Part shown: one piece after another, positions 6,674-37,911 of the stretch | Layout: every line of letters begins with the position of its first letter | How positions within the stretch are numbered: the stretch's first letter is position 1 | Source: an uncultured Methanomassiliicoccales archaeon | Lineage (GTDB): Archaea > Thermoplasmatota > Thermoplasmata > RBG-16-68-12 > CAYFXO01 | Direction: 5' to 3' | Assembly (NCBI GenBank): GCA_964347125.1 | Contig: CAYFXO010000005.1 | Location: 1 to 41,656 of the forward strand | DNA length: 41,656 nt | The notes under the pieces: generated by a model | Databases searched by the model: none | Told to the model about the DNA's origin: nothing | What the model saw: only the letters and a program-made list of their open reading frames with translations | Made by a program: the position numbers and the translations under genes

Positions 6674-6676
6674 TCC

Positions 6677-7147: not shown

Positions 7148-7171
7148 TGCCCGTCAATCCGAGCCTCCACT

Positions 7172-8217: not shown

Positions 8218-8631
8218 GTGGGGACATCTGCGGTGAACGAAGACCTCCAGGGGCTCAAGGAGTTCCACGGCCACCTGGGGCCCTACGTCGTGGTGGGCTG
8301 GCGGATGGCGAAGCTCGCCGTGGAGCGCCTCGGAGACGACTTCAAGGGCGCGGTGCGCACGGGCACGGACCCGCCCATGTCCTGCATCATCGACGGCATC
8401 CAGTGGGGCTCCCCCTGCACCGTGGGGCGGGGGAACTTGGCCATCTGGAACGAACGGCGGCCCGAGGCGATCTTCCGGAATGACAGCACCCGTCTGGAGA
8501 TCCGCCTCCTCCCGGCCATGTGGCGGGCCATCGAGGACGAGATGACCTCGGACACGGAGGAGGACCTGGCGGCGCGCCTCTACGACCGCCCGACGGGCGA
8601 GCTGTTCCACGTGATCGAGAAGCCCGCCTAG
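8218..8631 (+). CDS. FmdE-domain protein (formylmethanofuran dehydrogenase subunit E-like)
   Basis: GTG start. FHGHLGPYVVVGWRMA matches the FmdE-family FHGHxxPxxxxGxRM motif. 137 aa. Confidence 0.75.
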   Translation: MGTSAVNEDLQGLKEFHGHLGPYVVVGWRMAKLAVERLGDDFKGAVRTGTDPPMSCIIDGIQWGSPCTVGRGNLAIWNERRPEAIFRNDSTRLEIRLLPAMWRAIEDEMTSDTEEDLAARLYDRPTGELFHVIEKPA

Positions 8632-11600
8632 AACGTGATAGTGAAGGGCGGCTGGTCGCCCGTCACGAGCACCCAGTACCCGAAGCCGTTCGTCATCAGG
8701 TCCGCCGCCCCGAGCTGCTGGAGGTAGTAGGGCGCGGTGCCCGTGTCGTAGCCCTCCACCCGCTCCCACGAGACGGCCCCGAGGACGCTCCCCACCGCGT
8801 CGTCCGTCATGGACGCGTACCCGATGAGGTTCCATCCGTCGCACAGGCTCACCTGGGTGGAGGTGGGCACGGTGCCCGCCACGGTCCAGAGGCCCGCGGA
8901 GAGGCTGTCCACCCAGTACCCCGCGTCCCGGGATACGGTGGCGAGGGTGTTCGTCTGCTTCCCCACGTCGTAGGAAACCCACTCCTGGCTGCCGCAGGCG
9001 TCGAAGGCCTTCACCCAGCGGTACTCCGCGGTCCCGAAGACGGCGGTCACCGAGGGGTCCGCGGGCTGGATGGGTACGGAGACGAGCTGCGGGCCCGCTT
9101 GGAGCATCCGGGTGTACTTCGCCGCCTGGCCGGCGCACGCGCTGTCGCCCGCCGCGTTGGTGGCCAGGACGCAGTAGAAGTAGCTGTTCGGGTCCCCGTC
9201 CCCGGCGCCGCTGTGGGTGAAGGACGCCACGCCGCCCGCCACGGATCCCAGGAAGACGTAGGTCGCCGTGGAGGCGTCGTAGGTCGTCCCAAACCACACT
9301 TCGTAGTTCAGTACGTCCGGCTCGGAGATGGACAGGTCCCACTGGATCAGGACGTCCCCGGAGGCCACTCCGACGAGGGACGCCCGGACGTTCGTGGGCG
9401 CCTGGGGCGGCACGGGGCCGGTGCCGAGGACCTCGAAGGAGAGGCTCTGGAAGGGCCCCCAGTTCCCCCACTCGTCCTGGCCGTGGACGTAGAGGGTGTG
9501 GGTCCCGCCCGACCAGGGGGCGGCGGGGGTGGACCACTCCACGTCTTCCGCCGAGGAGGTGGGCGGGTTGACCAGGCTCATGGGGGTGCCGGTGCCGTCC
9601 GCCCCCGTGGCGTCGATGAAGAACTCCGCCGGGGTGATGGCGTGCACGTCGGATGCGCCCTTCAGGGAGTCGTCCACGGTGGCCGCGAAGGTGAGGGCGG
9701 CGCCCTGGGTCGCCGGGTTCGGGGAAAGGGTGACGCTCCCGGGCACGACGACGGGCCCCTGGGCATCCCCGCCGGGGCGGGTGATGCAGAAGTCCCCGTT
9801 GGAGGCGTCCGTGCCGTTCAGGGAGGGGATCCCGTTGTCCTGGGCGACGACCCTCACCTGGTAGCCACACCCGTTGGGGAGGCTTGAGATGTCCCACGCG
9901 TAGCTCCGCGGGGCAGCGCCGAGGGGCGCGATGAAGAACCAGGACTGGCCGGAGTTGGGGCTGTAGTACACCCCCTGGGTGTTTACGTTCGTCCCGCCGT
10001 AGGTGGTCACGTTCCAGTAGATGTTCGCCACATTGCCGGAGAAGGTCTCACCTCCATTCGGGTAAGACACCGTCAAGTCGGGGTGGTCCCGCTGGTCAAG
10101 TAGCCACTGGATCGTCTTGTCCATGACCTCGTTCCGGGTCGCATCGTTGTCCGTCTGGTAGTTCATCCCAGAGAACTCGAAGAAGTTCACCACGAGCTTC
10201 GAGAGCATCCCACCCCACACGCCGATGCCGAACGTGCCGTTGGGAAGGGAAGAGGTCCACTGGAGCCCCACGGTTCCGGGAATGCCGTCCTCCGTATCCC
10301 CGAAGTCCTCCCAGATGTCCTCCGTCGTGCCCCCGGCGGCGAGCATGGCCACCTCGTCCCCGGACCCGCCGTCCCGATGGGGCTCGTAGGGGATGCGGTT
10401 CACGCCGAGGTAGGCGCCGCTGATGAAGCGGCCGGAGACGCCCTGCATCTCTAGCCAGCGCTGGGGATCTTGGAGCCAATCGGCCTTCATGGTGGAATGC
10501 AGCCAGGCGTCCGTGCTGGCGTCGGAATACTCTTCGTTATTCGGCGCGTCCGTGTCGAAGCCCCAGGCCACGTCGTGAGAGGAGACGTAGAGACGGCCGC
10601 CGTTGTCCAGGTAGTCCGTGAGGAGTTGCCGCGAGGACGGCTCGAAGGGCGGGTATTGCTCCAGGCCCACCTGCCATGCTACAACCTTGTACTCCTGGAG
10701 GACGCTCAGGGGCGGGTCGCCGCTCCGCTCCACGTGCCAGAGATTGTAGGACCAGGCATAGGCATCGAAGGCGTCCCCGTAGTGCCCGATGCGGTCGGGG
10801 AGAATCGTGCTGTCGCCAATGACCAAGAGAATCTCGCCCTTCTCCGTCGTGGTGAAGGAGTAGTGGGCGCCGCCGTTGTCGTCCCGGGTGCTGTGGCCGA
10901 ACCAGTCTGTCGACTCGACATCGAAGAAGTATTGGGTTCCTGTCTCGAGGCTGATGAGGTCCACGGCGTGGTCCACCTGAAGGGCGGCGAGGGAGACGCT
11001 CCCCAGCTCCAGCCCCGTGGTCTTCCCGTAGTACACGACGGAGTCCGAGGGCTCGTCCGTGTCCCAGGTGACGGTGGCGGCGGCGTTCGTGATGTCGATG
11101 ACCTGGACGCCCGTGACCCGGGGGCCTGCGGCGTCGATGATCGCGTCGGCGGTGGCGGTGTGGACGGGGCTGACATCCGAGTAGGACGCAGTGACCGTAT
11201 CACCGTGGTGCACCTGCAGGACGCCGTCCGCGGCCACCGCCCCGAAGGCGGTGGTGATTGTGCCCTGCCAGAGGCCGGAGCCACCGACAGTCTCGGCGAG
11301 GCTGACGACCTCCGGGGTCGTCTCCGTCGTGCTCGTCATACTGACCTGCACGGAGGCGGCGTTGGTATCCTGCACGCGGATCGTGATGGTGTCGGATTCG
11401 CTGTACACCTCCCGGTCCATGAAGACTTGCCCCCAGCCGAGGTCGAGGTCCGCGAGGACCACGAGGGCGAAGGGCTGTGGGCCCGCGGGGACGTTCGCGC
11501 CGGTAATGGTGACTGTCCACTGGCCCGCGGACGCCAGAGGCGCGGGGAGGTAGACAGTTTCGACCGGGTGGGTCGCGTCGAAGCCCCCGCCAGTAACGGA

Positions 11601-14845: not shown

Positions 14846-15170
14846 GGACCGGTGCTAGGCCACTGGGGTTGACGCCCGACTCCGATGAAGGGTGATCAGA
14901 GACCTTCTCGACCCCGTGACCCCGCGAGCGCCGGTAGTCCGCGGTGAGGCTGCTCACTTCCGTGCCTGGCCCAGTCCCCGCGACTGGAACGGGGGATACG
15001 ACCCTCCGGTCGCACCCGTCGTCGCCACCTGCCCCGCGGGACAAGGTCTCACGGTCGATCCCCGGCCCGTTCGCCGTGCCGGATACGCCGCCCCCAGCTG
15101 TCACCCCCGCGTATTGGCGATTTCGGGTGACAGGGGACGCCAAGCCCCCCGGTCAAGCCTAGCACCTTTC
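14846..15170 (-). ncRNA. Signal recognition particle RNA (archaeal 7S RNA)
   Basis: Read on the minus strand. The terminal helix pairs GGUGCUAGGC (15166-15157) with GCCUAGCACC (14860-14851). Helix-8 motif CCAGGCACGGAAGUGAGCAGCC carries a GGAA tetraloop and AGCAGCC. Helix-6-like hairpin GCGACC-GGAG-GGUCGU carries a GGAG tetraloop. Long helix-5 pairings are present (GAGACCUU/AAGGUCUC). A TATA box lies ~25 nt upstream. Ends are +/- 5 nt. Confidence 0.88.
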
Positions 15171-22285: not shown

Positions 22286-23221
22286 GTGCTACTCCTTGGC
22301 GCGGCCGCGGCCTACCGGGAGAGCCGGCCGGTGGCGGACATCGGCATGGACAACCAGCTCCAGCTCTTCCTGCGCCTCCAGGTCCCCGTGGACGTCGTGG
22401 AGAGCGGGGACACCCTCCCCTTCGACGTCCTCGTTGAGGACCAGCACGCGAACCCCGTCCCCGGCGCCCACGTCCGAGTGTGGTGGGAGGGCGCCCTGGC
22501 GGTGTCCCCCACGGAGGCGGCGACGGACTCGCAAGGACGGGCCCGGTTCCACCTCACGAGCCCCGACGGCACGGAGGGGCAGTTCCTCCTCCAGTTCGAG
22601 GTGGAATACCCGGAGGCCATCCCCGACGCCGCGACCATGGAATTCCTCATCTTCACCCCGCCCGCCCCGACGCCGGTCTCCCAGGACGTCCAGGTGGTCT
22701 CCGCGGGCCTCGCGATTCTCGGCCTGGCGGCCCTGGCCGGCTCCGAGGCGGGGCGGTACGGGCTCTTCAACGCCCTGGTCTTCCCCCTCTACACCCGCCT
22801 GAAGCGTGAGGAGGTCCTGGACCACTTCGTCCGGGGCCAGATCTACGGCCACATTCTCTCGAACCCCGGGGAGCACTACACCGCGATCCGGGAGCGCCTC
22901 AAGGTCACGAACGGCACCCTCTCCCACCACCTCCGCACGCTGGAGGTCCAAGGCTTCATCCAGTCCCGCCGGGAGGGGACCCGGAAGCGGTTCTACTCCG
23001 TGAACATGGTCCTCCCCCGGGACCGGGGGATCCGCCTGAGCGACCTGCAGCTGGAGATGCTGGAGCGGATCGACGGCGGCGACGGGCCGACGCAGAAGGA
23101 CATCGCGGACGCCGTGGGGACGAGCCAGCAGTCCGTGAGCTACAACCTGCGGGCCCTCCTCCAAGAGGAGAAGGTGCGGGTCGAGCGAGAGGGGCGGAAG
23201 AAGCGCTACTACCCCTCGTAG
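22286..23221 (+). CDS. Membrane-bound transcriptional regulator: extracytoplasmic Ig-like domain, TM helix, two cytoplasmic wHTH domains
   Basis: Ig-like (Big_1-type) segment VLVEDQHANPVPGAHVRV...ATDSQGRARFHLTSPDGTEG. TM helix VVSAGLAILGLAALAGS. wHTH 1: GQIYGHILSNPGEHYTAIRERLKVTNGTLSHHLRTLEVQGFIQSRREGTRKRFY. wHTH 2: PTQKDIADAVGTSQQSVSYNLRALLQEEKVRVEREGRKKRYY. The first canonical start is GTG 22286, but the frame is open from 22193 (see findings). Confidence 0.75.
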   Translation: MLLLGAAAAYRESRPVADIGMDNQLQLFLRLQVPVDVVESGDTLPFDVLVEDQHANPVPGAHVRVWWEGALAVSPTEAATDSQGRARFHLTSPDGTEGQFLLQFEVEYPEAIPDAATMEFLIFTPPAPTPVSQDVQVVSAGLAILGLAALAGSEAGRYGLFNALVFPLYTRLKREEVLDHFVRGQIYGHILSNPGEHYTAIRERLKVTNGTLSHHLRTLEVQGFIQSRREGTRKRFYSVNMVLPRDRGIRLSDLQLEMLERIDGGDGPTQKDIADAVGTSQQSVSYNLRALLQEEKVRVEREGRKKRYYPS

Positions 23222-23295: not shown

Positions 23296-23416
23296 CATCA
23301 TCCAGTTAGCCGGGGCTCGATGCTCGGGTATCCCCTAGAAGCGCTCCCAGAGCGACCGAGCGTCGGTGCCCTGGGCCGTCCGCGGTCCGCGGCGCCGTGG
23401 GACTAGGAGGAATGGA

Positions 23417-26236
23417 ATGGAATCGAGACGATTCGGTGCGATTGCCATGGTCTCCGTGACCGTGGCGCTCGCCCTCGTGGGTAGCAGCCTTTTCCTGGCC
23501 TACGCGGGCGCGCACAATGTGAGCGGGACACGTCAAGAGTTCGTCTTGCGCATCGGCGCCCAGGACGACATCGAGACGAAGAACATCTTTGGTCACTACC
23601 TCTCGCCTGATGTGTGGACGGCGAACGTGCTGGACCCCCTGTACGACGGGTTCCTGCAGGCGGACCCGGACACGGACCAGCTGCTTCCCTACATCGCGCG
23701 GGGCGTGGACTTCGACGAGAGCGGCACGCTCGAGCGGGACGAAGTCGGCGTCTTCGCGAAGCAGGCGGGATCGGACCAGAGAACGGTCACGATCTACTAC
23801 GACCTGAGCGGCGTCCAGTTCGACGACGGGACCCCGGCCACCGTGGAGGACCTCCTGTTCTCCTTCCACGCGGAAGTGAAGATCCCCACATCCATTAGCA
23901 AGGACGTGATCAAGGACCAGATGGGGCTGGCGGGTTCGAACTACTCCACGACCCGATGGCTCCACCTGTACCGGATGGACAACATGAACATCTGGGAGGA
24001 TGAAGGGACGGGCAATCCCTCCACGAATCCCGCCCGGGTGGCCCTGCAGTTCAAGCTCCAGGGCGACTTCTACAACTTCTACCGGGCGTCCACGAGCGTC
24101 ACCCTGTATCCGCGCTACCTGTGGGAAGGGACCGGCTCCTCGATTACGTGGGACAACCCCGGCTCCCGGTTCCACGGTCAGGTCGTGGACTGCACCCACG
24201 CGGACTGGGGCAACGCGCTGGACACCTCCACCTGGAACGGTGTGCCGGAAGCGGACCCCGCGGCGTGGGACTTGGACAGCGCCTCCCAGTGGACCGTGCC
24301 CGACGGCTGCATGATCGGGACGGGCCCGTACGTGTGGGACCAGTGGATCCCGGGCAGCTTCGCGAAGCTGAACCGGAACCCCCAGTTCTTCTCGACGGTG
24401 GACGGGGCGGGATACGAGTACATCCACGCGCCGTTCCTGGACGGGATGCGCTACCAGATCTACAAGACGGTCCAGGCCGCGGTGTTCGCCCTCCAGGCGA
24501 ACGAGATCGATGTGATCTCGTGGTCCATCCCACCCGACCAAGTGGCGGACCTGCAGAACAACCCGGACATCACCGTGAGCAGCAACGCGGAGAAGGGCTT
24601 CTTCTACCTGGCGTACCACATGCAGATCGCCGGCGGCGCGCCGTGGGCCTATGAGGACGGCGATCCGACGAAGGCGGACATCGGCATCCCCTTCCGCCAG
24701 GCGGTGGCCCACACCATCGACAAGCGGCAGATCGTCACCTCGCTGTTGCAGAACTTCGGCGTCATCGCGGACGGCGTCGTGTCGCCCGTGTCGACGCGGT
24801 GGTACAACTCGTCCCTGCCCCAGTACGACTTCGACCTGGCGCAGGCGGCGGCCATCCTGGACACGTTCTCGACGGACCCGGGAGGCACCTGTCAGCAGGA
24901 CGGGACCGGGTGCCGGAGCTTCGTGGGCATCGGGTCGTCCCTCTTCGACATCCAGTGCCCCCAGGCCGACTACGACCCCATCCGGGCCGCGGCGTGCAGC
25001 ATGATCGAGACCCAGATGCGGGCGGTCGGGATGAACGTGAAGGCGACGCACCTGGCCTTCTCCCAGATCACCCAGAACCTGGACAACCGGGACATGCGCA
25101 TGTGGATCCTCGGGTGGCGCATCGGCAGCGACCCGCCGGACTACCTCCACGCGTTCTTCTACTCGGGGAACTACCCCGACGGGCAGAACTACCCCGGCTA
25201 CGCCAACCCCGTGTTCGACCAGCTGGTGACGGACATCCGCGCGAACCTGGACCCCGACAGCCAGGCGGACCAAGTGAAGTACGCCCAGGGCATCATCTCC
25301 ACGGAGCTCCCGTACGACGTCCTGTACTACCGGACGAACATCGAGGCGTACCGGAACGACCGGACGAGCAACTGGACCGTGGGGGCGGCGGGTTCCATCT
25401 TCGGCGGTTCGTACTGGTCCTGGATCGGCGTGGAGCCGCCGAAGCCGGGATCGCTGCGGGCCACGGTCACCACGGAGACCGCCGTCGCTTCGGGCGGCAC
25501 GATCCCCGTGACGGCCACCGTGCGGGACCCGGACAACAGCCCCTTCGCCAACGCCGACGTGACCCTCCGGGCCACGGGCGGCACCTGGGCCAACCCGGGA
25601 GCCGACCCCCTGACCACCTCCGGAACGACCCTCTCCACGGGCAAGTTCACGGGCAACTACATCGCGCCCACGGTGACGACGAAGCAGAAGGTCTTCATCA
25701 GCGTCTCGGCGAGTGACCCCGGCGGCGTGTTCGGGGACTCCCTGGAGACCTCCGTCGTGGTCACGGTGTTCCCGCCCGGGGTGAGCTTCCTCTCGATTAC
25801 GGCCGACGCGACGAGCACCGTCGCCGAGGTCGGGGACGCCATCCTGATCGACGTGACGGTGCGCGACGAGGCGCGGGTCACCGTCGATACGGCCGACGTC
25901 GCCGTGGCGGTACAGCCGACGGCGAGCCCGGGAGCGACGCCCACCAGCGGGCAGACGGACTCGGCCGGGAGGATTCAGATCTCCTTCCAGGTCGATGACA
26001 TCGGCGGCGTGGAGTCGAAGGACTACCAGTTGACCTTCAACGCCACGAAGGCCGGCTTCGAACCTGCGCCGGGACGGGTCCTGGACCTGACCATCTTCGA
26101 ACCAGAAACTCCTGGTGGAACGGGAGGCGACGGCGGACCGGTGGTCCCCGCCCTTGACATGCTGGCCGTCCTCGCGGTGGTCGGCACCCTGGCGGTGGCC
26201 TACGGCTACGTCCGAGAACGAGGGAAGAGGGAGTAG
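23417..26236 (+). CDS. ABC transporter substrate-binding protein, family 5 (Opp/Dpp-type), with C-terminal Ig-like repeats and a TM anchor (copy 1)
   Basis: ATG at 23417 with GGAGG at 23406-23410 (track start GTG 23366 is possible). Signal/anchor FGAIAMVSVTVALALVGSSLFLAYAG. The SBP_bac_5-like core has GTGPY, FAKLNRNPQFF and NPDITV. The tail has two Big_1-like repeats and the TM helix LDMLAVLAVVGTLAVAYGYV. Confidence 0.85.
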   Translation: MESRRFGAIAMVSVTVALALVGSSLFLAYAGAHNVSGTRQEFVLRIGAQDDIETKNIFGHYLSPDVWTANVLDPLYDGFLQADPDTDQLLPYIARGVDFDESGTLERDEVGVFAKQAGSDQRTVTIYYDLSGVQFDDGTPATVEDLLFSFHAEVKIPTSISKDVIKDQMGLAGSNYSTTRWLHLYRMDNMNIWEDEGTGNPSTNPARVALQFKLQGDFYNFYRASTSVTLYPRYLWEGTGSSITWDNPGSRFHGQVVDCTHADWGNALDTSTWNGVPEADPAAWDLDSASQWTVPDGCMIGTGPYVWDQWIPGSFAKLNRNPQFFSTVDGAGYEYIHAPFLDGMRYQIYKTVQAAVFALQANEIDVISWSIPPDQVADLQNNPDITVSSNAEKGFFYLAYHMQIAGGAPWAYEDGDPTKADIGIPFRQAVAHTIDKRQIVTSLLQNFGVIADGVVSPVSTRWYNSSLPQYDFDLAQAAAILDTFSTDPGGTCQQDGTGCRSFVGIGSSLFDIQCPQADYDPIRAAACSMIETQMRAVGMNVKATHLAFSQITQNLDNRDMRMWILGWRIGSDPPDYLHAFFYSGNYPDGQNYPGYANPVFDQLVTDIRANLDPDSQADQVKYAQGIISTELPYDVLYYRTNIEAYRNDRTSNWTVGAAGSIFGGSYWSWIGVEPPKPGSLRATVTTETAVASGGTIPVTATVRDPDNSPFANADVTLRATGGTWANPGADPLTTSGTTLSTGKFTGNYIAPTVTTKQKVFISVSASDPGGVFGDSLETSVVVTVFPPGVSFLSITADATSTVAEVGDAILIDVTVRDEARVTVDTADVAVAVQPTASPGATPTSGQTDSAGRIQISFQVDDIGGVESKDYQLTFNATKAGFEPAPGRVLDLTIFEPETPGGTGGDGGPVVPALDMLAVLAVVGTLAVAYGYVRERGKRE
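24454..25461. repeat. 1008-bp tract 100% identical to 27343-28350 (copy A)
   Basis: Base-by-base comparison at both borders and at sampled internal lines. The off-frame track ORFs are identical (24649..24888 = 27538..27777; 24651..25004 = 27540..27893). Constant offset of 2889 nt. Confidence 0.9.
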
Positions 26237-26263: not shown

Positions 26264-26302
26264 CCCCTCTTTCGGTCATCCAGGGGAAAGGGAGGAGTGG
26301 AC

Positions 26303-29110
26303 ATGGAACCCAGAAGCCCCGCGAGGCGAAGCGTAGCCCTCGTCCTAGCCATAGCCGCCGCGCTGCTGGCCGGGACGGTCTTCGCGACCGCCGCCGCGGC
26401 CTACGATAGGAACGGGACACGTCAGGAGTTCGTCCTGCGCATCGGCGCCCAGGACGACATCGAGACCAAGAACTTCTTCGGGAACGCGCTGTCGCCGGAC
26501 GTGTGGACGGCGAACGTCCTGGGGCCCCTCACGGACGGGGTCCTGCAGGCGGACCCGGACACGGACCAACAGCTGCCCTACGTCGCCCGGGGCGTGGACT
26601 TCGACGAGGACGGCACCTTCGAGCGGGACGAGGTCGGGGTGTTCGGGAAGCAGGCGGGGACGAACCAGCGGGTCGTCACGGTCTACTACGACCTGAACGG
26701 GGCGGAGTTCCACGACGGGACGCAGGCGACGGTGGAGGACCTGATGTTCTCGTACCACGCCACGACGAAGATCCCCACGGTCATCAGCAACGACGTGATC
26801 AAGGACCAGGCGGGCCTCGCGGGGTCGAACTACTCCACGACCCGGTGGCTCCACATCTACAAGTTGGACCCGCTGAACGTGTGGGAGGATGAGGGGACGG
26901 GCTCCCCGTCGGGCGACCCCTACCGCGTGGCCCTCCAGTTCCAGTTGCAGGGCGACTACTACGACTTCTACCGGAGCACGATCTCCGTCGGTCTCCTGCC
27001 GCGGGCCCTCTGGGAAGGGACGGGGGCGAGCATCATCTGGAACAACCCCGGCTCGCGGTTCAACGGACAGACGGTGGACTGCACCCACGCGGACTGGGGT
27101 CAGGTCCTCGACACCTCGATCTGGAACGGCGTGCCGGAGACCGCCCCGAACGCCTGGGACCTGAACGGGGCTGCGGAGTGGACCGTCCCCGACGGCTGCA
27201 TGATCGGGACGGGCCCGTACGTGTGGGACCAGTGGGTCCCGGGGAGCTTCGCGAAGCTGAACCGGAACCCCCAGTTCTTCACCACGGTGGACGCGAGCGG
27301 CTACGAGTACATCCACCCGCCCTTCCTGGACGGGATGCGGTTCCAGATCTACAAGACGGTCCAGGCCGCGGTGTTCGCCCTCCAGGCGAACGAGATCGAT
27401 GTGATCTCGTGGTCCATCCCACCCGACCAAGTGGCGGACCTGCAGAACAACCCGGACATCACCGTGAGCAGCAACGCGGAGAAGGGCTTCTTCTACCTGG
27501 CGTACCACATGCAGATCGCCGGCGGCGCGCCGTGGGCCTATGAGGACGGCGATCCGACGAAGGCGGACATCGGCATCCCCTTCCGCCAGGCGGTGGCCCA
27601 CACCATCGACAAGCGGCAGATCGTCACCTCGCTGTTGCAGAACTTCGGCGTCATCGCGGACGGCGTCGTGTCGCCCGTGTCGACGCGGTGGTACAACTCG
27701 TCCCTGCCCCAGTACGACTTCGACCTGGCGCAGGCGGCGGCCATCCTGGACACGTTCTCGACGGACCCGGGAGGCACCTGTCAGCAGGACGGGACCGGGT
27801 GCCGGAGCTTCGTGGGCATCGGGTCGTCCCTCTTCGACATCCAGTGCCCCCAGGCCGACTACGACCCCATCCGGGCCGCGGCGTGCAGCATGATCGAGAC
27901 CCAGATGCGGGCGGTCGGGATGAACGTGAAGGCGACGCACCTGGCCTTCTCCCAGATCACCCAGAACCTGGACAACCGGGACATGCGCATGTGGATCCTC
28001 GGGTGGCGCATCGGCAGCGACCCGCCGGACTACCTCCACGCGTTCTTCTACTCGGGGAACTACCCCGACGGGCAGAACTACCCCGGCTACGCCAACCCCG
28101 TGTTCGACCAGCTGGTGACGGACATCCGCGCGAACCTGGACCCCGACAGCCAGGCGGACCAAGTGAAGTACGCCCAGGGCATCATCTCCACGGAGCTCCC
28201 GTACGACGTCCTGTACTACCGGACGAACATCGAGGCGTACCGGAACGACCGGACGAGCAACTGGACCGTGGGGGCGGCGGGTTCCATCTTCGGCGGTTCG
28301 TACTGGTCCTGGATCGGCGTGGAGCCGCCGAAGCCGGGATCGCTGCGGGCGACCCTGACGACGGCCTCCGCCGTCGCCTCCGGGGGGAGCGTGTCCGTCT
28401 CGGCGACGGTCCGCAACCCGGACAACGACCCGGTGGCGGGGATGGATGTGACCCTCCGGGCCACGGGAGGCACGTGGCAGAACCCGGACCCGAACGACCC
28501 CAACGGCCTGACGACGAAGGGGACCACCCTGGTGACTGGGAAGTTCACCACGAACTACATCGCGCCCACGGTGACGACGAAGCAGAAGGTCCCCATCACC
28601 GTCCAGGCGAAGGACCCGAACGGGATCTTCGGCGAATCCCTCGAGACCTCCCTCATCCTCACCGTATTCCCCGCGGGGGTGGACTTCCTCTCGGTGAGCG
28701 TGGACCCCACGAGCGACCTGACCGTGGAAGGGGACCCCGTCCTCATCACGGTCACCGTGCGGGACCAGGACCAGATCCCCGTGGGCGCTTCCGACGTCGC
28801 CGTGACGGTGCAGCCCACGGCCAGCCCGGGCGCCAGCCCCACGACGGGGCCGACGGACGCCTCGGGGCTGATCCAGGTGACCTTCCAGGTGGATGACATC
28901 GGCGGCGTCCCGTCCAAGGCCTTCGAACTCACCTTCAACGCCACGAAGGCGGGCTACGCGGAGGCGCCGGGCCGCATCCTGGAGGTGAACGTCCTTGAGC
29001 TGGAGGAGACGCCGCCCCCGCCGGACGGCATCCCCGCCCTGGAGATCGCCGTCGTGGTCATGGCCATCCTCGCGGTGGCGGTCATCGTGCGTTGGCGGCA
29101 GCGCTGGTAG
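26303..29110 (+). CDS. ABC transporter substrate-binding protein, family 5, with C-terminal Ig-like repeats and a TM anchor (copy 2)
   Basis: ATG at 26303 with GGAGG at 26291-26295 (track start GTG 26297). Same architecture as copy 1. C-terminal anchor is IPALEIAVVVMAILAVAVIVRW. Confidence 0.85.
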   Translation: MEPRSPARRSVALVLAIAAALLAGTVFATAAAAYDRNGTRQEFVLRIGAQDDIETKNFFGNALSPDVWTANVLGPLTDGVLQADPDTDQQLPYVARGVDFDEDGTFERDEVGVFGKQAGTNQRVVTVYYDLNGAEFHDGTQATVEDLMFSYHATTKIPTVISNDVIKDQAGLAGSNYSTTRWLHIYKLDPLNVWEDEGTGSPSGDPYRVALQFQLQGDYYDFYRSTISVGLLPRALWEGTGASIIWNNPGSRFNGQTVDCTHADWGQVLDTSIWNGVPETAPNAWDLNGAAEWTVPDGCMIGTGPYVWDQWVPGSFAKLNRNPQFFTTVDASGYEYIHPPFLDGMRFQIYKTVQAAVFALQANEIDVISWSIPPDQVADLQNNPDITVSSNAEKGFFYLAYHMQIAGGAPWAYEDGDPTKADIGIPFRQAVAHTIDKRQIVTSLLQNFGVIADGVVSPVSTRWYNSSLPQYDFDLAQAAAILDTFSTDPGGTCQQDGTGCRSFVGIGSSLFDIQCPQADYDPIRAAACSMIETQMRAVGMNVKATHLAFSQITQNLDNRDMRMWILGWRIGSDPPDYLHAFFYSGNYPDGQNYPGYANPVFDQLVTDIRANLDPDSQADQVKYAQGIISTELPYDVLYYRTNIEAYRNDRTSNWTVGAAGSIFGGSYWSWIGVEPPKPGSLRATLTTASAVASGGSVSVSATVRNPDNDPVAGMDVTLRATGGTWQNPDPNDPNGLTTKGTTLVTGKFTTNYIAPTVTTKQKVPITVQAKDPNGIFGESLETSLILTVFPAGVDFLSVSVDPTSDLTVEGDPVLITVTVRDQDQIPVGASDVAVTVQPTASPGASPTTGPTDASGLIQVTFQVDDIGGVPSKAFELTFNATKAGYAEAPGRILEVNVLELEETPPPPDGIPALEIAVVVMAILAVAVIVRWRQRW
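27343..28350. repeat. 1008-bp tract 100% identical to 24454-25461 (copy B)
   Basis: See copy A. Confidence 0.9.
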
Positions 29111-30957: not shown

Positions 30958-33900
30958 ATGGCGGGGCGCAGCAAGTGGAAGGAGCGCTACCGGGCGTACG
31001 CGAAGGTCTTCAAGCAGAACTGGGAGCTCTACAAAGCGAGCCGCATCGGGCTCGTGGGCATCGCCATCATCATCTTCTTCCTCCTCATGGCCCTCTCTGC
31101 CCCGTACCTAGGCTTGCGTGACCCCATTGGGTGGTTCGCCCCCGACGAGGACATTATCGCGGTGGACCAGTACCACCCCCCAGGCATCGATACGGGAGTG
31201 CCCCCCTACAACGTCCGCACCACCCCTATCACCGAAGAGATCACCTTCCGCCTCCGACCGAAGTCGGAGGAGCCTCGTACGGACCGTGTCTATGTCACCA
31301 CGGACGACCACATCTACGCCATCCGTCCCATCACGGGCATCCAGAACTGGCTCTTCCCCGGTAATTTCACCGCCGACGGGACGATCACGACCCCCGTCGT
31401 GGTGATCAACTTCGGCCACCACACGGAGCCGGACAAGGCCGACTTCGTCCTGTACTTCGGCACGGAACAGGGCACCCTCTACGCCCTGAACGACTCGAAC
31501 ACCCAGATCGGGAACGTCCCCGTGGGGCAGAACGCCTTCTCCGTCGCCTTGGACGGGAGCCCCGTGGAGTCTGTGGCGGCCTACTCCTTGGACATTGAGG
31601 CGGGGCGGCGGGGGAGCGTCCGCATCGAACAGGACAACACTCCTGACTTGGATGGCGTCGACACTCCCTTTGCTGTCGACCTAGGCGGGTCCTTCCAGAT
31701 CTACTATTCCGGCAACAACTCGGAGGAGGACAGGTGGGGCATTCTGAGCCTGAGTTCCCGGGACGGGTTGAGATTCGTGCGTGGCGGCTCGAAGGGAGCA
31801 AACGATGTGTTCAGTACCCCGAGCCTCTGGGATGGGGAGGGGGAGATGGATCCGTACGTCTTCCAGGATTCGCTCGGTAGCTGGCTGATGTACTACGTTG
31901 GATTCGATGGTTCGGCGTACCGCATTCTCCGGGCCACATCCCCGGATAGGCTCGACTGGACGAAAGCCGCTACCCCCGTCCTATCGTCCTCACGGCCCGA
32001 GGACGCCGCAGGCATGCGCCGCCCCTGGCTCGTCCGCGAGCCCGGGCTCTGGACCCTGCTGTATGCCGGATATGACGGGACGATGTGGAGACTCCTTAGC
32101 GCGACATCAACGGATGACGGGGCGAATTGGTCCGGCCCCTCGGTCGTCCTGGATGACGCCCGCCACCCGACGGTCTACGAACCGGAACCGGGTTCTGGGA
32201 ACTACACAATGGTCTATACGGCCAACGTCTCCGGCGCGCCCCGCCTCTTCGAGACCACCTCGATGGACCCGGGGGTTTGGTCTCCCGGCGTCGAGATCGT
32301 GGGTCCGGGAGACGCCCTTCGCCTCGTGGACACGGGTCACCCAATCTTCGACCCCCTCAGTCTGGAGGCCCAGATCTCTCAAGGGGCCCAGAGCCCGATG
32401 GTGCTTCCCCTGGAGGACGGGAGTTTCCGCATGTACTACGTCTCCCCCTACTTCGAGCAGCGGGCAGGGGGAGAGGACATGGCCGCCATCGTGACCCAGA
32501 CCTCCCCAGACGGTCTCATGTGGATTCGCGAGCACAAGGACCTCTACGTGGCGACCACGCAAGCGGGCTGGGTGTATGCATTCTCCGCGGTAGACAACCA
32601 ACTCCTGTGGCAACGGAAGATCAGCGACCTACCCACCCGGGTGTCCGGCACCCCCCTCATCCCCGCGAATGACCCCACCTACTCCTCGGCCTTCGACCGG
32701 GACGGCGCCATCGTCGTGGTGGGGACCCAAGACGGGGAGATTCATGGGCTCCGGACGAGGGACGGCGTGCTCGCCTGGGAGGACCCCTTCCACCTGGGCC
32801 TGCCCGAAGGAGGGACCTGGTGGACGCCCCCTGTCGTAGCGGAGCAGTCCGCCATACCCATCGCGAACGGGACAGACTTCACCGACGTGGCGTACGCAGC
32901 TTCCAGCGATGGATGGCTATACGCGGTCTTCGTCAAGGACGGGCAGCTGATCCCCCATTGGAAGGACTCCGCATCGGGGTGGGAGCGAGAGATCGGCATC
33001 CCCGTCCGGGATGCGGGAGGGGACCTCGACTTGGGGAACCTGTCCGCCCCATCCGTGCGCGGGACCACCCTCTACGTAGGGTCGTCCACGGGGCGAGCCT
33101 ACGCCCTCTACCGTGACAATGTGGGCCTCACCATCAAGGCGGGAGACACGAAATGGGAATTCGGAGACGAGGCCCTCCGGGACAAGAACGCCACGTTCGC
33201 CATCCGTCCCACGAACTGGAACCCGCTAGACTTGGTCTTCTTCGTCGCGAACCACGACAACGGGACCGAGAACGACCCCACGGACGACCGGTCCGCGGTG
33301 TACAGCATCGCCTTGGACGGCGAAATCTCGTGGAAACAGAACTTCGAGGGCCACGTCGCCGGGCCTGTCATCGTCTGGCGCTCTGAGGAGCCCGTGTCGG
33401 GCACCCAGGGGCAGCTCCAGCCCGCCGTCTGGTTCGGGACGGACCACGGCATCGTATACGCGTACTCCGCGGCGGGGAAGGTCATCGCACCACTTCCGCC
33501 CACCTGGCTCCGCCCGGTGCAGAGTGGCAACGTCTACTGGCTCGGGACGGACGATCGGGGGCGGGACCTGTTCAGCCAGCTCATGTACGGCGCGCAGATC
33601 GCCCTCATCGTCGGCTTCCTGGCGGCCTTCTTCTCGATCTCCATCGGCGTCATCATCGGCCTCGTGGCCGGCTACTCCGGCGGGCGGGTGGAGTCCATCC
33701 TCATGCGGTTCACCGACGTCATCCTCGTCCTGCCCGGCCTCCCGTTGGTCATCATCCTGGCCGCCGTCCTCGGCGCGAACATCTGGAACATCATCTTCGT
33801 CATCGCCATCGTCGGGTGGCCCGGGGTCGCCCGCGTCATCCGCGCCGAGGTCCTCTCCCTCAAGGAGCGGCCCTTCATCGATTCCGCCCGGGTCACGGGC

Positions 33901-34206
33901 GCGAGCAACATCCGGATCATGTTCCGGCACGTGGCCCCGAACATCCTCCCCCTCGCGTTCCTGTACATGACCTTCGCGGTGAGCGGGGCCATCCTCACGG
34001 AGGCGGCCCTGAGCTTCATCGGGCTCGGGGACGTGAACACCCCCTCCTGGGGCCAGATGCTGGAGGCCATCCAGCGGGCCAATGTGTTGGGGTCGTGGTG
34101 GTGGCTCCTTCCACCGGGGCTGGGCATCACGTTCCTGTCCCTGGCCTTCTACCTCGTCGGGCGCGGCTACGAGCAGATCGTCAACCCGCGGCTGAGGGCA
34201 CGGTGA
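30958..34206 (+). CDS. ABC transporter permease (DppC/OppC-type) with a ~805-aa extracytoplasmic beta-propeller insertion
   Basis: OppC-type N-terminal helix RIGLVGIAIIIFFLLMALSAPYLGLRDP. The canonical continuation NVYWLGTDDRGRDLFSQLMYGAQIAL appears only ~800 aa later. The permease core has SARVTGASNIRIMFRHVAPN. 1082 aa, versus ~280-300 typical. Confidence 0.9.
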   Translation: MAGRSKWKERYRAYAKVFKQNWELYKASRIGLVGIAIIIFFLLMALSAPYLGLRDPIGWFAPDEDIIAVDQYHPPGIDTGVPPYNVRTTPITEEITFRLRPKSEEPRTDRVYVTTDDHIYAIRPITGIQNWLFPGNFTADGTITTPVVVINFGHHTEPDKADFVLYFGTEQGTLYALNDSNTQIGNVPVGQNAFSVALDGSPVESVAAYSLDIEAGRRGSVRIEQDNTPDLDGVDTPFAVDLGGSFQIYYSGNNSEEDRWGILSLSSRDGLRFVRGGSKGANDVFSTPSLWDGEGEMDPYVFQDSLGSWLMYYVGFDGSAYRILRATSPDRLDWTKAATPVLSSSRPEDAAGMRRPWLVREPGLWTLLYAGYDGTMWRLLSATSTDDGANWSGPSVVLDDARHPTVYEPEPGSGNYTMVYTANVSGAPRLFETTSMDPGVWSPGVEIVGPGDALRLVDTGHPIFDPLSLEAQISQGAQSPMVLPLEDGSFRMYYVSPYFEQRAGGEDMAAIVTQTSPDGLMWIREHKDLYVATTQAGWVYAFSAVDNQLLWQRKISDLPTRVSGTPLIPANDPTYSSAFDRDGAIVVVGTQDGEIHGLRTRDGVLAWEDPFHLGLPEGGTWWTPPVVAEQSAIPIANGTDFTDVAYAASSDGWLYAVFVKDGQLIPHWKDSASGWEREIGIPVRDAGGDLDLGNLSAPSVRGTTLYVGSSTGRAYALYRDNVGLTIKAGDTKWEFGDEALRDKNATFAIRPTNWNPLDLVFFVANHDNGTENDPTDDRSAVYSIALDGEISWKQNFEGHVAGPVIVWRSEEPVSGTQGQLQPAVWFGTDHGIVYAYSAAGKVIAPLPPTWLRPVQSGNVYWLGTDDRGRDLFSQLMYGAQIALIVGFLAAFFSISIGVIIGLVAGYSGGRVESILMRFTDVILVLPGLPLVIILAAVLGANIWNIIFVIAIVGWPGVARVIRAEVLSLKERPFIDSARVTGASNIRIMFRHVAPNILPLAFLYMTFAVSGAILTEAALSFIGLGDVNTPSWGQMLEAIQRANVLGSWWWLLPPGLGITFLSLAFYLVGRGYEQIVNPRLRAR

Positions 34207-35510
34207 GTCCCGTGGCCATGCTGGATGTGAGGAACCTGAAGACGTACTTCCGCATCCTCAAGGGGAGCGTGAAGGCCGTGGACGGGGTGACCTTCACCCT
34301 GGACCGGGGGGAGACCATGGGCCTCGTGGGCGAGTCGGGGTGCGGGAAGACGACGACGGCGTTCGCCATCACCCGCCTCCTGCCCTCGAATGGGGACATC
34401 GTCGGCGGGGAGATCCGCTTCAACGACGTCGTCATCGGCCGGGCGGACCTGGCCACGGAGGTCAACGAGATCCTCAAGCAGGGGGACTGGCAGCGGCAGG
34501 TGCAGAAGGCCCTCGCCCGGAGCCAGGCCCGCCTCGAGGCGATGCAGGCCCTGGACGAGGAGGAGGACGTCGAGGCGGAGGTGATGGACACCGAGGACGT
34601 CCGGGAGCGGGAGGCCCGGGTCCTGGGGCTCCTGATGGAGGCCATGGCGACGGCGACGGAGGAGGATGGGGAGTCCCTGCGCCTCCGGCTCCAGCGCCTG
34701 GTGGACAAGGAGATCCGGTCGTGGTCGGGCCGCCGCCGCAAGAAGCGGATGGAGCGGGAGATCGAGGACCGAATGACGAACATCCGCTGGGACGAGATCT
34801 CCATGATCTTCCAGGGCGCCATGAACGCCTTCAATCCCGTCTACAAGGTGGGGGACCAGATCATGGAGGCGCTCCTCACCCACGAGGACATCTCGAAGGA
34901 GGACGCCCGGAAGCGGGTCGCGGAGCTCTTCGACCTCGTGGGGCTGGACGAGGCCCGCATCGAGGGGTACCCCCACGAGTTCAGCGGGGGCATGCGGCAG
35001 CGCGCCATCATCGCGATGTCCCTGGCCCTGACGCCCCAGCTCATCATCGCGGACGAGCCCACCACCGCCCTGGACGTGATCATGCAGGACCGCATCCTCG
35101 CGGAGATCCGGGACATCCAGCGGCGGATGGGGATGGCCATGATGATCATCACCCATGACATCTCCGTCGTGGCGGAGGTGGCGGAGAAGATCGCCATCAT
35201 GTACGCCGGGAAACTCGTGGAGATCGGCGGCATTGAGGAGGTGTTCGGCCGTCCCGCGAACCCCTACACCATCGGCCTCATGGCCGCCTTCCCCAGCATC
35301 AAGGGGGAGCGGGAGCGCCTCCAGGCCATCCCCGGCTCCCCGCCGGACCTGGCGAACCCGCCGTCCGGGTGCCGGTTTCACCCCCGCTGCCGCTACGCCA
35401 AGGACATCTGCAAGGTGGAGGAACCCGACCTTCTGGAGGTGCGGGAGAACCACCTGGCCGCGTGCCACTTCGCCAAGGAGATCTTTGCGGGGGAACTGGG
35501 GGAGACGTAG
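34203..35510 (+). CDS. ABC transporter ATP-binding protein (OppD/DppD-type) with a ~105-aa charged helical insertion
   Basis: GTG 34203 overlaps the permease stop (GTGA); GTG 34212 and ATG 34218 are alternatives. Walker A GESGCGKTT, signature FSGGMRQR, Walker B LIIADEPTTALD. The C-terminal oligopeptide-ATPase domain has NPYT ... GCRFHPRC. Confidence 0.9.
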   Translation: MSPVAMLDVRNLKTYFRILKGSVKAVDGVTFTLDRGETMGLVGESGCGKTTTAFAITRLLPSNGDIVGGEIRFNDVVIGRADLATEVNEILKQGDWQRQVQKALARSQARLEAMQALDEEEDVEAEVMDTEDVREREARVLGLLMEAMATATEEDGESLRLRLQRLVDKEIRSWSGRRRKKRMEREIEDRMTNIRWDEISMIFQGAMNAFNPVYKVGDQIMEALLTHEDISKEDARKRVAELFDLVGLDEARIEGYPHEFSGGMRQRAIIAMSLALTPQLIIADEPTTALDVIMQDRILAEIRDIQRRMGMAMMIITHDISVVAEVAEKIAIMYAGKLVEIGGIEEVFGRPANPYTIGLMAAFPSIKGERERLQAIPGSPPDLANPPSGCRFHPRCRYAKDICKVEEPDLLEVRENHLAACHFAKEIFAGELGET

Positions 35511-36716
35511 TTGGAAGCCGAGCTGCAGGCCCTGGGCGAGATCGAGCCTCCCTCCGCGGAGGTCGTCTGGGAGGTCGACAACCTAGTGAAGTGGTTCTCC
35601 GTGAGGGCGGGGTTCCTCAGCGCCATCATGGGGAAGGAGCTGTTTGTCCACGCCGTGGACGGGGTGAGCTTCGACATCCACAAGGGGGAGATCCTGGGCG
35701 TCGTGGGGGAGTCCGGGTGCGGGAAGACCACCACGGGTCGGCTCCTGGTCCGGCTGGAGACCCCCACCTCGGGGAAGATGGTCTTCGACGGGGAGGACAT
35801 CGGCGGCCTGAAGGGACGGGCCCTGAAGGACTTCCGACGGAACGTCCAGATGGTGTTCCAGGACCCCTACGAGAGCCTGAACCCGCGGTTCAACGTGTAC
35901 AACACGGTGGCGGAGCCCCTCGTCGTCCACCATGTGGGGGAGACCATCGAGGAGCAGGAGGAGATGGTCATCCAGGCCCTGGAGAACGCGGAGCTGAAGC
36001 CGGCGGACGACTTCATGTACCGCTACCCCCACGAACTCAGCGGGGGCCAACGGCAGCGCGTCGCCGTGGCCCGCGCCCTGGTCCTCCGACCCAAGTTCAT
36101 CGTGGCCGACGAGCCGGTGTCCATGCTGGACGTCTCCATCCGGGCGGGGATCATGAACCTCATGCTCCTCCTGCGGCAGCAGTACGAGATCCCCTTCATG
36201 TTCATCTCCCACGACGTCTCCGTGACCCGGTACATGAGCCACCGGATCGCGGTGATGTACCTGGGGAACATCGTGGAGCTTGCGCCCTCGGAGAAGGTCA
36301 TCAAGGACCCGAAGCACCCCTACACGGAGGCCCTCCTCTCCGCGGTGCCCGTGCCCGACCCCACGGCGAAACACGGGCGTGTCCAAATCCGCGGGGAGCT
36401 GCCGAGCCCCATCCACCTCCCCACCGGGTGCGCGTTCCACCCCCGCTGCCTCTACAGGCGGGAGATCTGCGAGGTCGTGAAGCCCGAGCTGAGGGAGGTG
36501 GAACCCGGCCACTGGGTCCAGTGCCACTTCGCCGAAGACCTGGACCTCCAGAGCCCCGACGACGTGGACGTCCGGGAGATCGGGTTCTGCGAGAAGTGTC
36601 GGGAGCCGGTGCTGAAGAGCATGCTCTCCGAAGTGTGTGAGTGCCCCAACAAGATCTACCATGAGGAGTGCGCCATCGAGCTGGCCCAGTGCCCCATCTG
36701 CCAGAAGACGTTCTAG
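35511..36716 (+). CDS. ABC transporter ATP-binding protein (OppF/DppF-type) with a C-terminal Cys/His zinc-binding extension
   Basis: TTG start directly after the TAG of the previous gene. Walker A GESGCGKTT, signature LSGGQRQR, Walker B FIVADEPVSMLD, then HPYT ... GCAFHPRC. A ~55-aa extension ends in CEKC..CEC..HEEC..CPIC. Confidence 0.88.
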   Translation: MEAELQALGEIEPPSAEVVWEVDNLVKWFSVRAGFLSAIMGKELFVHAVDGVSFDIHKGEILGVVGESGCGKTTTGRLLVRLETPTSGKMVFDGEDIGGLKGRALKDFRRNVQMVFQDPYESLNPRFNVYNTVAEPLVVHHVGETIEEQEEMVIQALENAELKPADDFMYRYPHELSGGQRQRVAVARALVLRPKFIVADEPVSMLDVSIRAGIMNLMLLLRQQYEIPFMFISHDVSVTRYMSHRIAVMYLGNIVELAPSEKVIKDPKHPYTEALLSAVPVPDPTAKHGRVQIRGELPSPIHLPTGCAFHPRCLYRREICEVVKPELREVEPGHWVQCHFAEDLDLQSPDDVDVREIGFCEKCREPVLKSMLSEVCECPNKIYHEECAIELAQCPICQKTF

Positions 36717-36724
36717 GTGATGGG

Positions 36725-37303
36725 ATGAACAAGCGGGCCGCTGCCCTGGCCGTCACGTTCCTCGTCGTGGGCGTCACCGCGGGCTTCTTCATGTACCGCA
36801 CGGCCACCAACTACGACGCCGCCACCGAGGCCATCCTCACCCTCAGCCCGAGCATGGTCCAGGTGGAGGAGGTGCGGATCCCGCCCATCACGTCGATGCA
36901 GGAGACCATCTCCGTGGAGGTGGCGTTCAACGTGACGAACCCCACCCGCCAGGCCATCCTCGTGTGGCCCATCTCCTTCAAGCTGTACAACGACGACGTG
37001 ACGGACCAGCGGCCCTTCCTCCACAAACTCCAGGACCGGCTCGTGAACCTGGGGATCGCCACGGCTCCCGAGGCGCCCTACCGGCTGGAGCCCGGGATCT
37101 CCGTCACCATGGAGGGGACGGTCCTCGTGGGGGGCATCGTGGGGCACATCGACGTGCTGAACGTCACGGACCCAGACGGGAACTACCACCCGTTCATCAC
37201 GGCCTCCATGCTCGCGGAGCTCGCCGACACCGGCATCAAGCGGGACATCGAGGGCATCCTGTACGTCTCGGGGCCGGAGGGGGTGCCGCCGTATGAGGGG
37301 TGA
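36725..37303 (+). CDS. Membrane-anchored beta-sandwich protein (possibly LEA_2/WHy-like), function unknown
   Basis: ATG 36725 (the track ORF starts earlier at 36668). TM helix AAALAVTFLVVGVTAGFFMY. ISVEVAFNVTNPTRQAILVWPISFKLYNDD resembles the LEA_2 NPN-type strand motif. Weak call. Confidence 0.6.
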   Translation: MNKRAAALAVTFLVVGVTAGFFMYRTATNYDAATEAILTLSPSMVQVEEVRIPPITSMQETISVEVAFNVTNPTRQAILVWPISFKLYNDDVTDQRPFLHKLQDRLVNLGIATAPEAPYRLEPGISVTMEGTVLVGGIVGHIDVLNVTDPDGNYHPFITASMLAELADTGIKRDIEGILYVSGPEGVPPYEG

Positions 37304-37829
37304 GTCCTGGAAGCTCTACCTGGGCGGCCTGCTCTGGGCGGGGGTGGGGGCGGTGGTCATCGCCTTCGTGTTCACGTCCGCGTTCATGCGGACCTTCACC
37401 CCGATTCCCATGGACGCCTTCAACGCCGTCGTCATCGGCCCCCTCTTCGTCGGCTTCGTGGTGGGGGCGCTCCTGACGGAGGCGGACATCCGCGGCATCG
37501 CCTACGCGGCCATCCTCACCGCGATCCTGTCCATGGCCCTCATCTACGTCATGATGTTCATCCCCATGATTACGGGGACCGCGACGAACATGCTCCAGCT
37601 CCCCATGACAGACTTCGAGCGCCAGGCGATCATCCTGTCCAGCGTCTTCCTCATCCCCCTGACCATCATGGGGACCATCCTCGGGAAGGCCTTCGGGGAG
37701 ATGGCCCTGCCCTCCGACGAAGAGGTGGAGCGTCGGCGCCTGATCCTGCGGGAGACGCGGGAGTGGCACGCCCTCCTCCGGGGCACGCCCCCCGGGAAGC
37801 GGGGCCGGCCCCGGGACGAGGAGGAGTAG
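37293..37829 (+). CDS. Integral membrane protein (4 predicted TM helices) with a charged C-terminal tail, function unknown
   Basis: Overlaps the previous gene by 11 nt. Hydrophobic segments LGGLLWAGVGAVVIAFVF, AVVIGPLFVGFVVGALL, AAILTAILSMALIYVMMFIPMI and AIILSSVFLIPLTIMGTIL. Confidence 0.7.
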   Translation: MRGESWKLYLGGLLWAGVGAVVIAFVFTSAFMRTFTPIPMDAFNAVVIGPLFVGFVVGALLTEADIRGIAYAAILTAILSMALIYVMMFIPMITGTATNMLQLPMTDFERQAIILSSVFLIPLTIMGTILGKAFGEMALPSDEEVERRRLILRETREWHALLRGTPPGKRGRPRDEEE

Positions 37830-37838
37830 GGGGGCGAG

Positions 37839-37911
37839 TGGGCCGAGGCGGAATCGAACCGCCGATCTCCGCCTTGTAAGGGCGGCGTCATGGCCCCTAG
37901 ACCATCGGCCC
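37839..37911 (-). tRNA. tRNA-Val(UAC): tRNA-Val (anticodon UAC)
   Basis: 73-nt cloverleaf folded by hand. Acceptor GGGCCGA/UCGGCCC, U8, D stem GUCU/UGAC (3 WC pairs plus U-U). Anticodon stem CCGCC/GGCGG with loop CUUACAA. T arm GGCGG-UUCGAUU-CCGCC. Discriminator A; no encoded CCA. Confidence 0.92.

Follow-up and report, generated by a model that had tools for sequence, protein, structure and literature searches.

The window analyzed here is a stretch of 41,656 nucleotides (nt) on contig CAYFXO010000005.1 from an uncultured Methanomassiliicoccales archaeon, and it carries an operon for an ATP-binding cassette (ABC) importer whose OppC/DppC-type permease gene is the subject of this analysis. 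The gene encodes the membrane subunit of a Thermoplasmata-class Opp/Dpp importer, and between its first transmembrane helix (TM1) and its permease core it holds some 800 amino acids (aa) in which one propeller is inserted into another. The original prediction, made from the letters of the DNA and a list of its open reading frames (ORFs), had placed an ectodomain of about this length between the OppC N-terminal helix and the core, and the closer analysis agrees. The ORF is intact, with no stop or change of frame across 3249 nt (30958-34206); the motif PYLGLRDP occupies aa 49-56 (nt 31102-31125) and WLGTDDRGRD aa 861-870 (nt 33538-33567); and all 13 of the motifs that had been quoted are present in the translation, roughly where they had been placed. 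The core is matched by Pfam BPD_transp_1 at aa 897-1080 (97.9 bits vs. a cut-off of 26.4) and by NCBIfam models of Opp/Dpp/Nik-type C permeases over aa 858-1080, among which Opp4C reaches an E value of 1.8e-70 over aa 858-1078 yet stays under its equivalog cut-off. At the other end the Pfam domain OppC_N gives a weak match to aa 19-52 (19.3 bits vs. a cut-off of 23.9, E 0.0011), and in the homolog P0002 the same model scores 25.1 bits, above the cut-off. The segment before TM1 contains nine K/R against two D/E and is predicted to be cytoplasmic, and ten of the ten N-x-S/T sequons lie in the ectodomain, between TM1 and TM2. Together these features indicate that the ~800-aa stretch is extracellular.

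Blade 3 of the outer propeller contains the inner domain, a complete five-bladed propeller with the glycoside hydrolase (GH) GH130/GH43/GH32 fold. The inner domain comprises ~315 extra residues (aa 213-528) that the window protein and its homolog P0001 possess relative to insert-free homologs, and its five units of the form aromatic-YY / S-x-D-x-G-x-x-W lie between aa 246 and 522. The inner domain and the whole ectodomain were modeled separately with AlphaFold2 (AF2), each from its own alignment. From 12 aligned rows the inner domain gave a five-bladed propeller of ~18 strands with a predicted local distance difference test score (pLDDT) of 82.4 and a predicted template modeling score (pTM) of 0.85. 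A Foldseek search of the PDB with this model returned five-bladed propellers exclusively, the best being GH43 4qqs, GH130 9fj8 and 7fip, and the GH32 enzyme BT1760 at TM scores of 0.62-0.70, with GH62, GH117 and GH93 next (0.6-0.7 for the matches listed). A profile of the inner family searched against the PDB found GH130 7fip (E 6e-26), GH117 3r4y (9e-25) and GH130 9fj8 (3e-23), and hhalign of the inner domain with 9fj8 gave a probability of 97.8%. Family models score the window sequence itself lower: Pfam GH130 (PF04041) has no match in the window protein, the NCBIfam model for GH130 beta-1,2-mannobiose phosphorylase aligns at aa 323-420 below threshold (E 2.3e-7; 30.5 bits vs. a cut-off of 450), and GH32N reaches E 0.02 on the inner domain, under its cut-off. 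In P0022 the orthologous insert scores above the Pfam cut-offs of both GH130 (33.2 vs. 26) and GH32N (36.2 vs. 22.1). Identity between inserts is 48% for the window and P0001 and ~30% for the window and P0022, with blade motifs intact. The original prediction had named a five-bladed propeller of either GH32/43/130 or BNR/sialidase-like kind. The AF2 model, Foldseek, the profile and hhalign all uphold the former, whereas BNR/sialidase identity is rejected, since the domain has five blades and BNR_2 scores 15-16 bits against a cut-off of 31.4. Sialidases have a six-bladed fold, and the Asp-box-like S-x-D-x-G-x-x-W motifs present here are not specific to them.

That this is a true nested insertion follows from insert-free homologs (ectodomains of 472-531 aa), which align on either side of aa 213-528 and keep a continuous outer propeller. 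The strand PVESVAAYS precedes the insert, and the strand pair LYVATTQAG-WVYAF, from the third G-x-h-Y-A unit, follows it. The bounds predicted for the insert, 31615-32535, were within ~20 nt of the 31594-32541 obtained here, but the site, thought to fall between blades 2 and 3, proves to be inside blade 3 by alignment. The surrounding domain had been taken for a PQQ/BamB-like propeller, and sequence profiles establish this assignment. Pfam PQQ_2 matches aa 530-720 (38.3 bits vs. a cut-off of 27.6), and a profile of insert-free ectodomains searched against the PDB finds the archaeal 3hxj, BamB, PQQ dehydrogenases and the PQQ-like designer 'Cake' propellers, the last of which come closest to the outer domain among PDB entries. 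Two G-x-h-Y-A motifs precede the insert, at aa 118-131 (HIYAIRPITGIQNW) and 172-180 (GTLYALNDS), and six follow it between aa 537 and 842; the outer propeller is thus predicted by motif counting to have the eight blades proposed. The structural check of the nested topology succeeded only in its inner part. The AF2 model of the whole ectodomain has a pLDDT of 56.5 and a pTM of 0.55, with values of 70-90 restricted to aa ~470-750 (the C-terminal part of the outer propeller is predicted best), and Foldseek pairs it with double-propeller proteins and BamB at TM ~0.2, so that it is only locally propeller-like. Because this model is poor, the nesting is shown by alignment and not by a three-dimensional model.

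Table 1. Coordinates of the permease gene and its parts, followed by the remaining features of the window
Feature	Position	Strand	Description
OppC/DppC-type ABC permease, complete ORF	30958..34206	+	1082 aa plus stop; giant extracellular loop
TM1, aa 30-48	31045..31101	+	sequence kept in all family members (full-length alignment)
Outer PQQ/BamB-like propeller, N-terminal part, aa 57-212	31126..31593	+	blades 1-2 plus first strand of blade 3 (PVESVAAYS); aligns with insert-free homologs
Inner five-bladed GH130/GH43/GH32-like propeller, aa 213-528	31594..32541	+	between first and second strands of outer blade 3
Outer propeller, C-terminal part, aa 529-855	32542..33522	+	remainder of blade 3 plus ~five more blades; PQQ_2
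Permease core	33523..34203	+	GTD-x-x-GRD motif, TM2 onward, BPD_transp_1
HTH (helix-turn-helix; HVO_0163/MarR-type) regulator with Big_1-like N-terminal part	22286..23221	+	upstream of operon here and in locus L002
Substrate-binding protein 1	23366..26236	+	SBP_bac_5 plus Big_1 Ig-like domain
Substrate-binding protein 2	26297..29110	+	SBP_bac_5, Big_1, C-terminal membrane anchor
DppB/OppB-type partner permease, 565 aa	29259..30956	+	own ~270-aa extracellular insert between N-terminal helix and BPD_transp_1 core
DppD-type ATPase (ABC_tran plus oligo_HPY)	34212..35510	+	start taken as the in-frame GTG or ATG just past the permease stop
DppF-type ATPase (ABC_tran plus oligo_HPY)	35511..36716	+	
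Two small predicted membrane proteins	36668..37829	+	no Pfam match; similar-sized genes after the ATPases in L001 and L002
1747-aa protein with Peptidase_S8 (subtilase) domain	8628-13871	-	~12 kb upstream
2037-aa ORF	1044-7157	-	no Pfam match
Archaea_SRP RNA	14853-15164	-	181 bits
tRNA-Val(TAC)	37838-37911	-	

Relatives of the permease show which part of it is constant and which is not. A search with the ectodomain retrieved P0001 (1083 aa), which is 57% identical over the whole ectodomain and 66% over the full protein and is colinear with the window protein through both insert junctions, each of which is conserved. It also retrieved shorter permeases (755-777 aa) and longer ones (1172-1186 aa). 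The P0001 contig comes from another metagenome sample and encodes a DppB of 560 aa, the permease, two ATPases, two small ORFs and YjeF in the gene order of the window, and P0022 represents a third, low-GC lineage with the same architecture. An exhaustive HMMER search yielded 877 representatives, of which ~35 match the outer propeller and hundreds match the inner domain only. The proposed search for such permease fusions in other archaea showed that about 26 Thermoplasmata-class species genomes share the outer propeller; the 26 loci all belong to metagenome-assembled genomes labeled Thermoplasmata, Methanomassiliicoccales or Methanobacteriota, with record titles that mention soil, groundwater and sediment, which speaks against a Marine Group II origin. 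When insert types at blade 3 were assigned by ectodomain length and motifs, about 14 of these loci had none, five had a Kelch insert (L004, L005, L013, L014, L021), four had a third repeat of the form G-x-Y-T-S-L-A...IAYYD (L017, L018, L019, L024), and none had the GH130-like insert. The GH130-like nested permease was found only in the window, P0001 and P0022. A metagenome scan for further examples added only non-permease surface proteins, a single-protein scan of species representatives gave no close relative, and the ectodomain alignment, used as a search profile, brought in nothing beyond generic PQQ proteins.

The Kelch insert, a six-repeat propeller that also occurs in P0023 (198 bits) and P0027, also interrupts outer blade 3, one hairpin farther downstream than the GH130-like domain, between LYAFSGE and ELWNR. 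The third repeat, shared with P0005, P0007 and P0031, occupies the same site as the GH130-like domain. It consists of seven to eight units of ~45-50 aa with the consensus G-x-Y-T-S-L-A-(x)n-P-x-I-A-Y-Y-D-x-x-x-x-x-L-K-Y-A and remains unclassified, having no match among Pfam families or PDB sequences. The P0005 locus has the same operon, including the HTH regulator and a binding protein. What stays constant across the family is the outer propeller together with the enlarged DppB partner, which measures 534-663 aa in every family locus examined; the inner propeller is an accessory that can be exchanged. The outer propeller with its Kelch insert also exists as a free surface protein: P0039 (814 aa) and P0061 (1091 aa) possess both and have no permease domain, and in P0061 a signal or anchor stands at the N-terminus and Ig/FN3-like repeats at the C-terminus. 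Many of the proteins that match the inner domain only are giants with multiple repeats; the regular GH130-like module recurs in, among many others, P0021 (5844 aa, with 27 matched stretches) and P0025 (3302 aa), and P0011 and P0014 carry it as a fusion with a Peptidase_C39-like domain. In the window, where the overall GC content is ~68%, the inner domain (31594-32541) has a GC fraction at third codon positions (GC3) of 0.79; for the outer propeller this figure is 0.86-0.89, and the permease core, DppB and the binding protein reach 0.96-0.97. The low value of the inner domain fits, if weakly, a later acquisition.

The permease belongs to a full importer operon with SBP_bac_5 binding proteins, a DppB-type partner and two oligo_HPY ATPases (Table 1), and the gene order is the same in L001 and L002. 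The ~270-aa insert of the DppB partner has no covering Pfam match and is probably beta-rich. The two binding proteins are tandem paralogs, each with Big_1 Ig-like domains following the binding fold. In the DppD-type ATPase, ABC_tran is matched in two separate stretches and the orthologs are long for their type (428-429 aa), which hints at an insertion in the nucleotide-binding domain. The subtilase protein and the 2037-aa ORF upstream are probably large surface proteins, and the Archaea_SRP RNA identifies the window as archaeal. Among solved structures, the second binding protein is closest to peptide binders, namely AppA, DppA and one from Thermus. Given this and the S8 subtilase gene, peptides or glycopeptides are the likelier cargo, and we regard peptides as more likely than free sugars. 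The suggestion that the permease couples polymer cleavage directly to import is left as speculation; the binding proteins look like peptide binders.

The glycosidase activity suggested for the inner propeller is not supported by comparison with known enzymes. In GH130, an invariant Asp is combined either with three basic phosphate-binding residues or, in hydrolases, with the pair Glu227/Glu268 (PMC4599007), and mannose is recognized at the -1 subsite by an Asn/Asp/Asp triad (PMC4264767). By hhalign and profile alignment the invariant Asp (Asp142 of BT3780, Asp92 of Teth514_1788) corresponds to D298 of the window protein (MDPY; E in P0022), whereas phmmer and hmmalign shift the register by one blade and place R356 at that position. 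Sequence alignment gives neither the basic residues nor the Glu pair a counterpart, the aligned positions reading YAG/YTA or YTA/YVS according to register, and the third Asp of the -1 triad has none either, being Y in the window, F in P0001 and E in P0022. A GH130 phosphorylase is rejected on the missing phosphate-binding site. The search for conserved catalytic acids across the three orthologs (window, P0001 and P0022) recovered D235 on blade 1, which is invariant, and D/E298 as the only conserved acidic inner-strand residues. The acidic triad of GH43 and GH32 enzymes resides on the inner strands of blades 1, 3 and 4; here no acidic residue is conserved on blades 3 and 4, where the three orthologs read RRP/RGP/TSP and RHP/QDP/SSG. 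These alignments do not support catalysis by the inner propeller and make a hydrolase unlikely.

Our tentative preference, at somewhat less than even likelihood, is for a peptide importer whose inner propeller works as a non-catalytic module for ligand capture or docking. In ordinary importers the TM1-TM2 loop is short and faces the binding protein; here it has grown into an extracellular platform of ~800 aa. The outer propeller and the DppB ectodomain may together dock membrane-anchored binding proteins and hold them over the translocation pathway, and the GH130-like propeller may keep a substrate (glycan, glycoprotein or glycopeptide) or a partner exo-enzyme beside the importer. Several points count against this proposal. 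The low confidence of the whole-ectodomain model leaves the two-propeller arrangement and the outer blade count as predictions; the presence of the outer propeller with Kelch in the non-permease proteins P0039 and P0061 implies that the module may serve a role unrelated to transport; and the assignment of peptides as cargo derives from weak similarity (E 1e-16 to 1e-10). Furthermore, the blade register relative to GH130 differs among methods, and in the best profile-profile alignment D298 falls on the invariant acid, so weak or unusual catalysis is possible. A second view holds that the inner propeller, exposed outside the cell, is an active GH130/GH43-type hydrolase, trimming a glycan or glycopeptide at the importer mouth with cleavage coupled to uptake. 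The fold and profile are nearest to GH130, GH43 and GH32 enzymes, hhalign puts D298 at the invariant GH130 Asp, D235 on blade 1 does not vary among the three orthologs, and some GH130 members without the phosphate site are known to act outside the cell as hydrolases (PMC4599007). We nevertheless consider it decidedly unlikely, given the missing basic residues, Glu pair and third subsite Asp (PMC4264767), the variability of inner-strand residues on blades 3-5 among the orthologs, the scores of the window's domain under the Pfam and NCBIfam cut-offs, and the relatives that exchange the domain for Kelch or omit it.

Both propellers could instead be purely structural, serving as spacer or scaffold to hold the anchored binding proteins or to span the cell envelope, with the inner domain as a ligandless evolutionary passenger. 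The absence of an insert from about 14 of the 26 genome loci, the lowest GC3 of the gene in the inner domain, the small number of surface residues conserved among the three orthologs, and the role of BamB, taken as the nearest solved relative of the outer domain, as a scaffold protein are all in keeping with this. However, one and the same blade has independently fixed three different complete propellers, a sign of a selected function, and the insert has been retained with intact blade motifs at the identities observed in P0001 and P0022; we hold a purely structural role to be a lesser though real possibility. More improbable still is a module for adhesion to, or recognition of, particles, other cells or episymbionts, for which the permease would be merely a membrane anchor with no part in transport. 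Such a role would suit the secreted or anchored non-permease proteins with Ig-like tails (P0039, P0061) and the frequency of GH130-like propellers in giant surface proteins such as P0021, but in the permeases the ectodomain is always in the loop that faces the binding protein and is always accompanied by an enlarged DppB partner and a full Opp operon. Finally, a chimeric misassembly or a fusion made by a frameshift, which the original prediction had raised against itself, is so improbable that we reject it. Nothing specific speaks for it beyond the uncultured source, and it is contradicted by the independent metagenome contig with its colinear homolog, conserved junctions and syntenic operon, by the same architecture in the third lineage, and by the uninterrupted ORF.

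Several known systems resemble parts of this arrangement. The P2 loop of MalF in the Escherichia coli maltose importer MalFGK2, a single Ig-like domain of ~180 aa that reaches the binding protein, belongs to the permease of a type I ABC importer and is, like the loop described here, enlarged and extracytoplasmic; the window loop differs in its ~800 aa, its two propellers and its Opp/Dpp-type permease, and its docking is something we infer. GlnPQ and OpuA have substrate-binding domains fused to the permease and so share the covalent placement of extracellular domains in an importer membrane subunit, but their fused domains are canonical binding proteins, whereas the window encodes separate SBP_bac_5 proteins and fuses propellers. 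With GH130 enzymes (7fip, 9fj8, BT3780) the inner domain has in common the five-bladed fold, the profile and hhalign scores given above, and the Asp aligned to D298; it departs from them in lacking the phosphate-binding residues and Glu pair, in its sub-cut-off scores, in being extracellular and inserted in another domain, and in its membership of a very regular subfamily of repeats that is frequent among giant surface proteins. The outer domain is like BamB and other PQQ-like eight-bladed propellers (3hxj) in its repeat motif and PQQ_2 membership and unlike them in being an archaeal propeller in a permease loop that hosts an inserted domain; features of PQQ enzymes were not seen in it, and no test aimed at them was made. 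In the eukaryotic integrin receptors the alpha I-domain, a ligand-binding vWA domain, is placed between blades 2 and 3 of a seven-bladed propeller; there too a domain is nested in a propeller loop near blades 2-3 and is present or absent among paralogs, but the guest in the window protein is a propeller and not vWA. The Bacteroides SusCD levan utilisome with the GH32 enzyme BT1760 (8a9y, 8aa2), chains of which are among the Foldseek matches, also sets a five-bladed propeller of GH fold at the entrance of a nutrient importer; it is a non-covalent outer-membrane complex with a proven enzyme, whereas the window domain is covalently part of a cytoplasmic-membrane ABC permease, and catalysis by it is not supported. 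The original prediction knew of no described example, and full-text literature searches likewise found neither a propeller-bearing Opp permease nor a propeller-in-propeller of such a kind.

All parts of the protein belong to known families; what is new is their combination and the blade-3 site with its interchangeable guests. A bolder extension, which we think doubtful as a whole, would make the family a modular socket in which a constant PQQ-like propeller accepts GH130-like, Kelch or unclassified-repeat propellers at blade 3 and thereby recruits polymeric substrate or exo-enzymes above the pore, a single-polypeptide archaeal counterpart of the Bacteroides utilisome whose GH130-like unit might keep a low-rate glycosidase activity on glycopeptides. 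To our knowledge, type I ABC importers are thought to meet their substrates through binding proteins only, and large extracellular permease domains are rare. Here ~800 aa of propellers are found at the place where the binding protein docks, and the inner propeller has been exchanged between lineages. The protein would also be a natural example of a propeller serving as the insertion scaffold for another propeller, which is of interest to protein design. If the module captures substrate or partners, archaea that are wall-less or lightly walled would have a new means of linking the handling of extracellular polymers to uptake.

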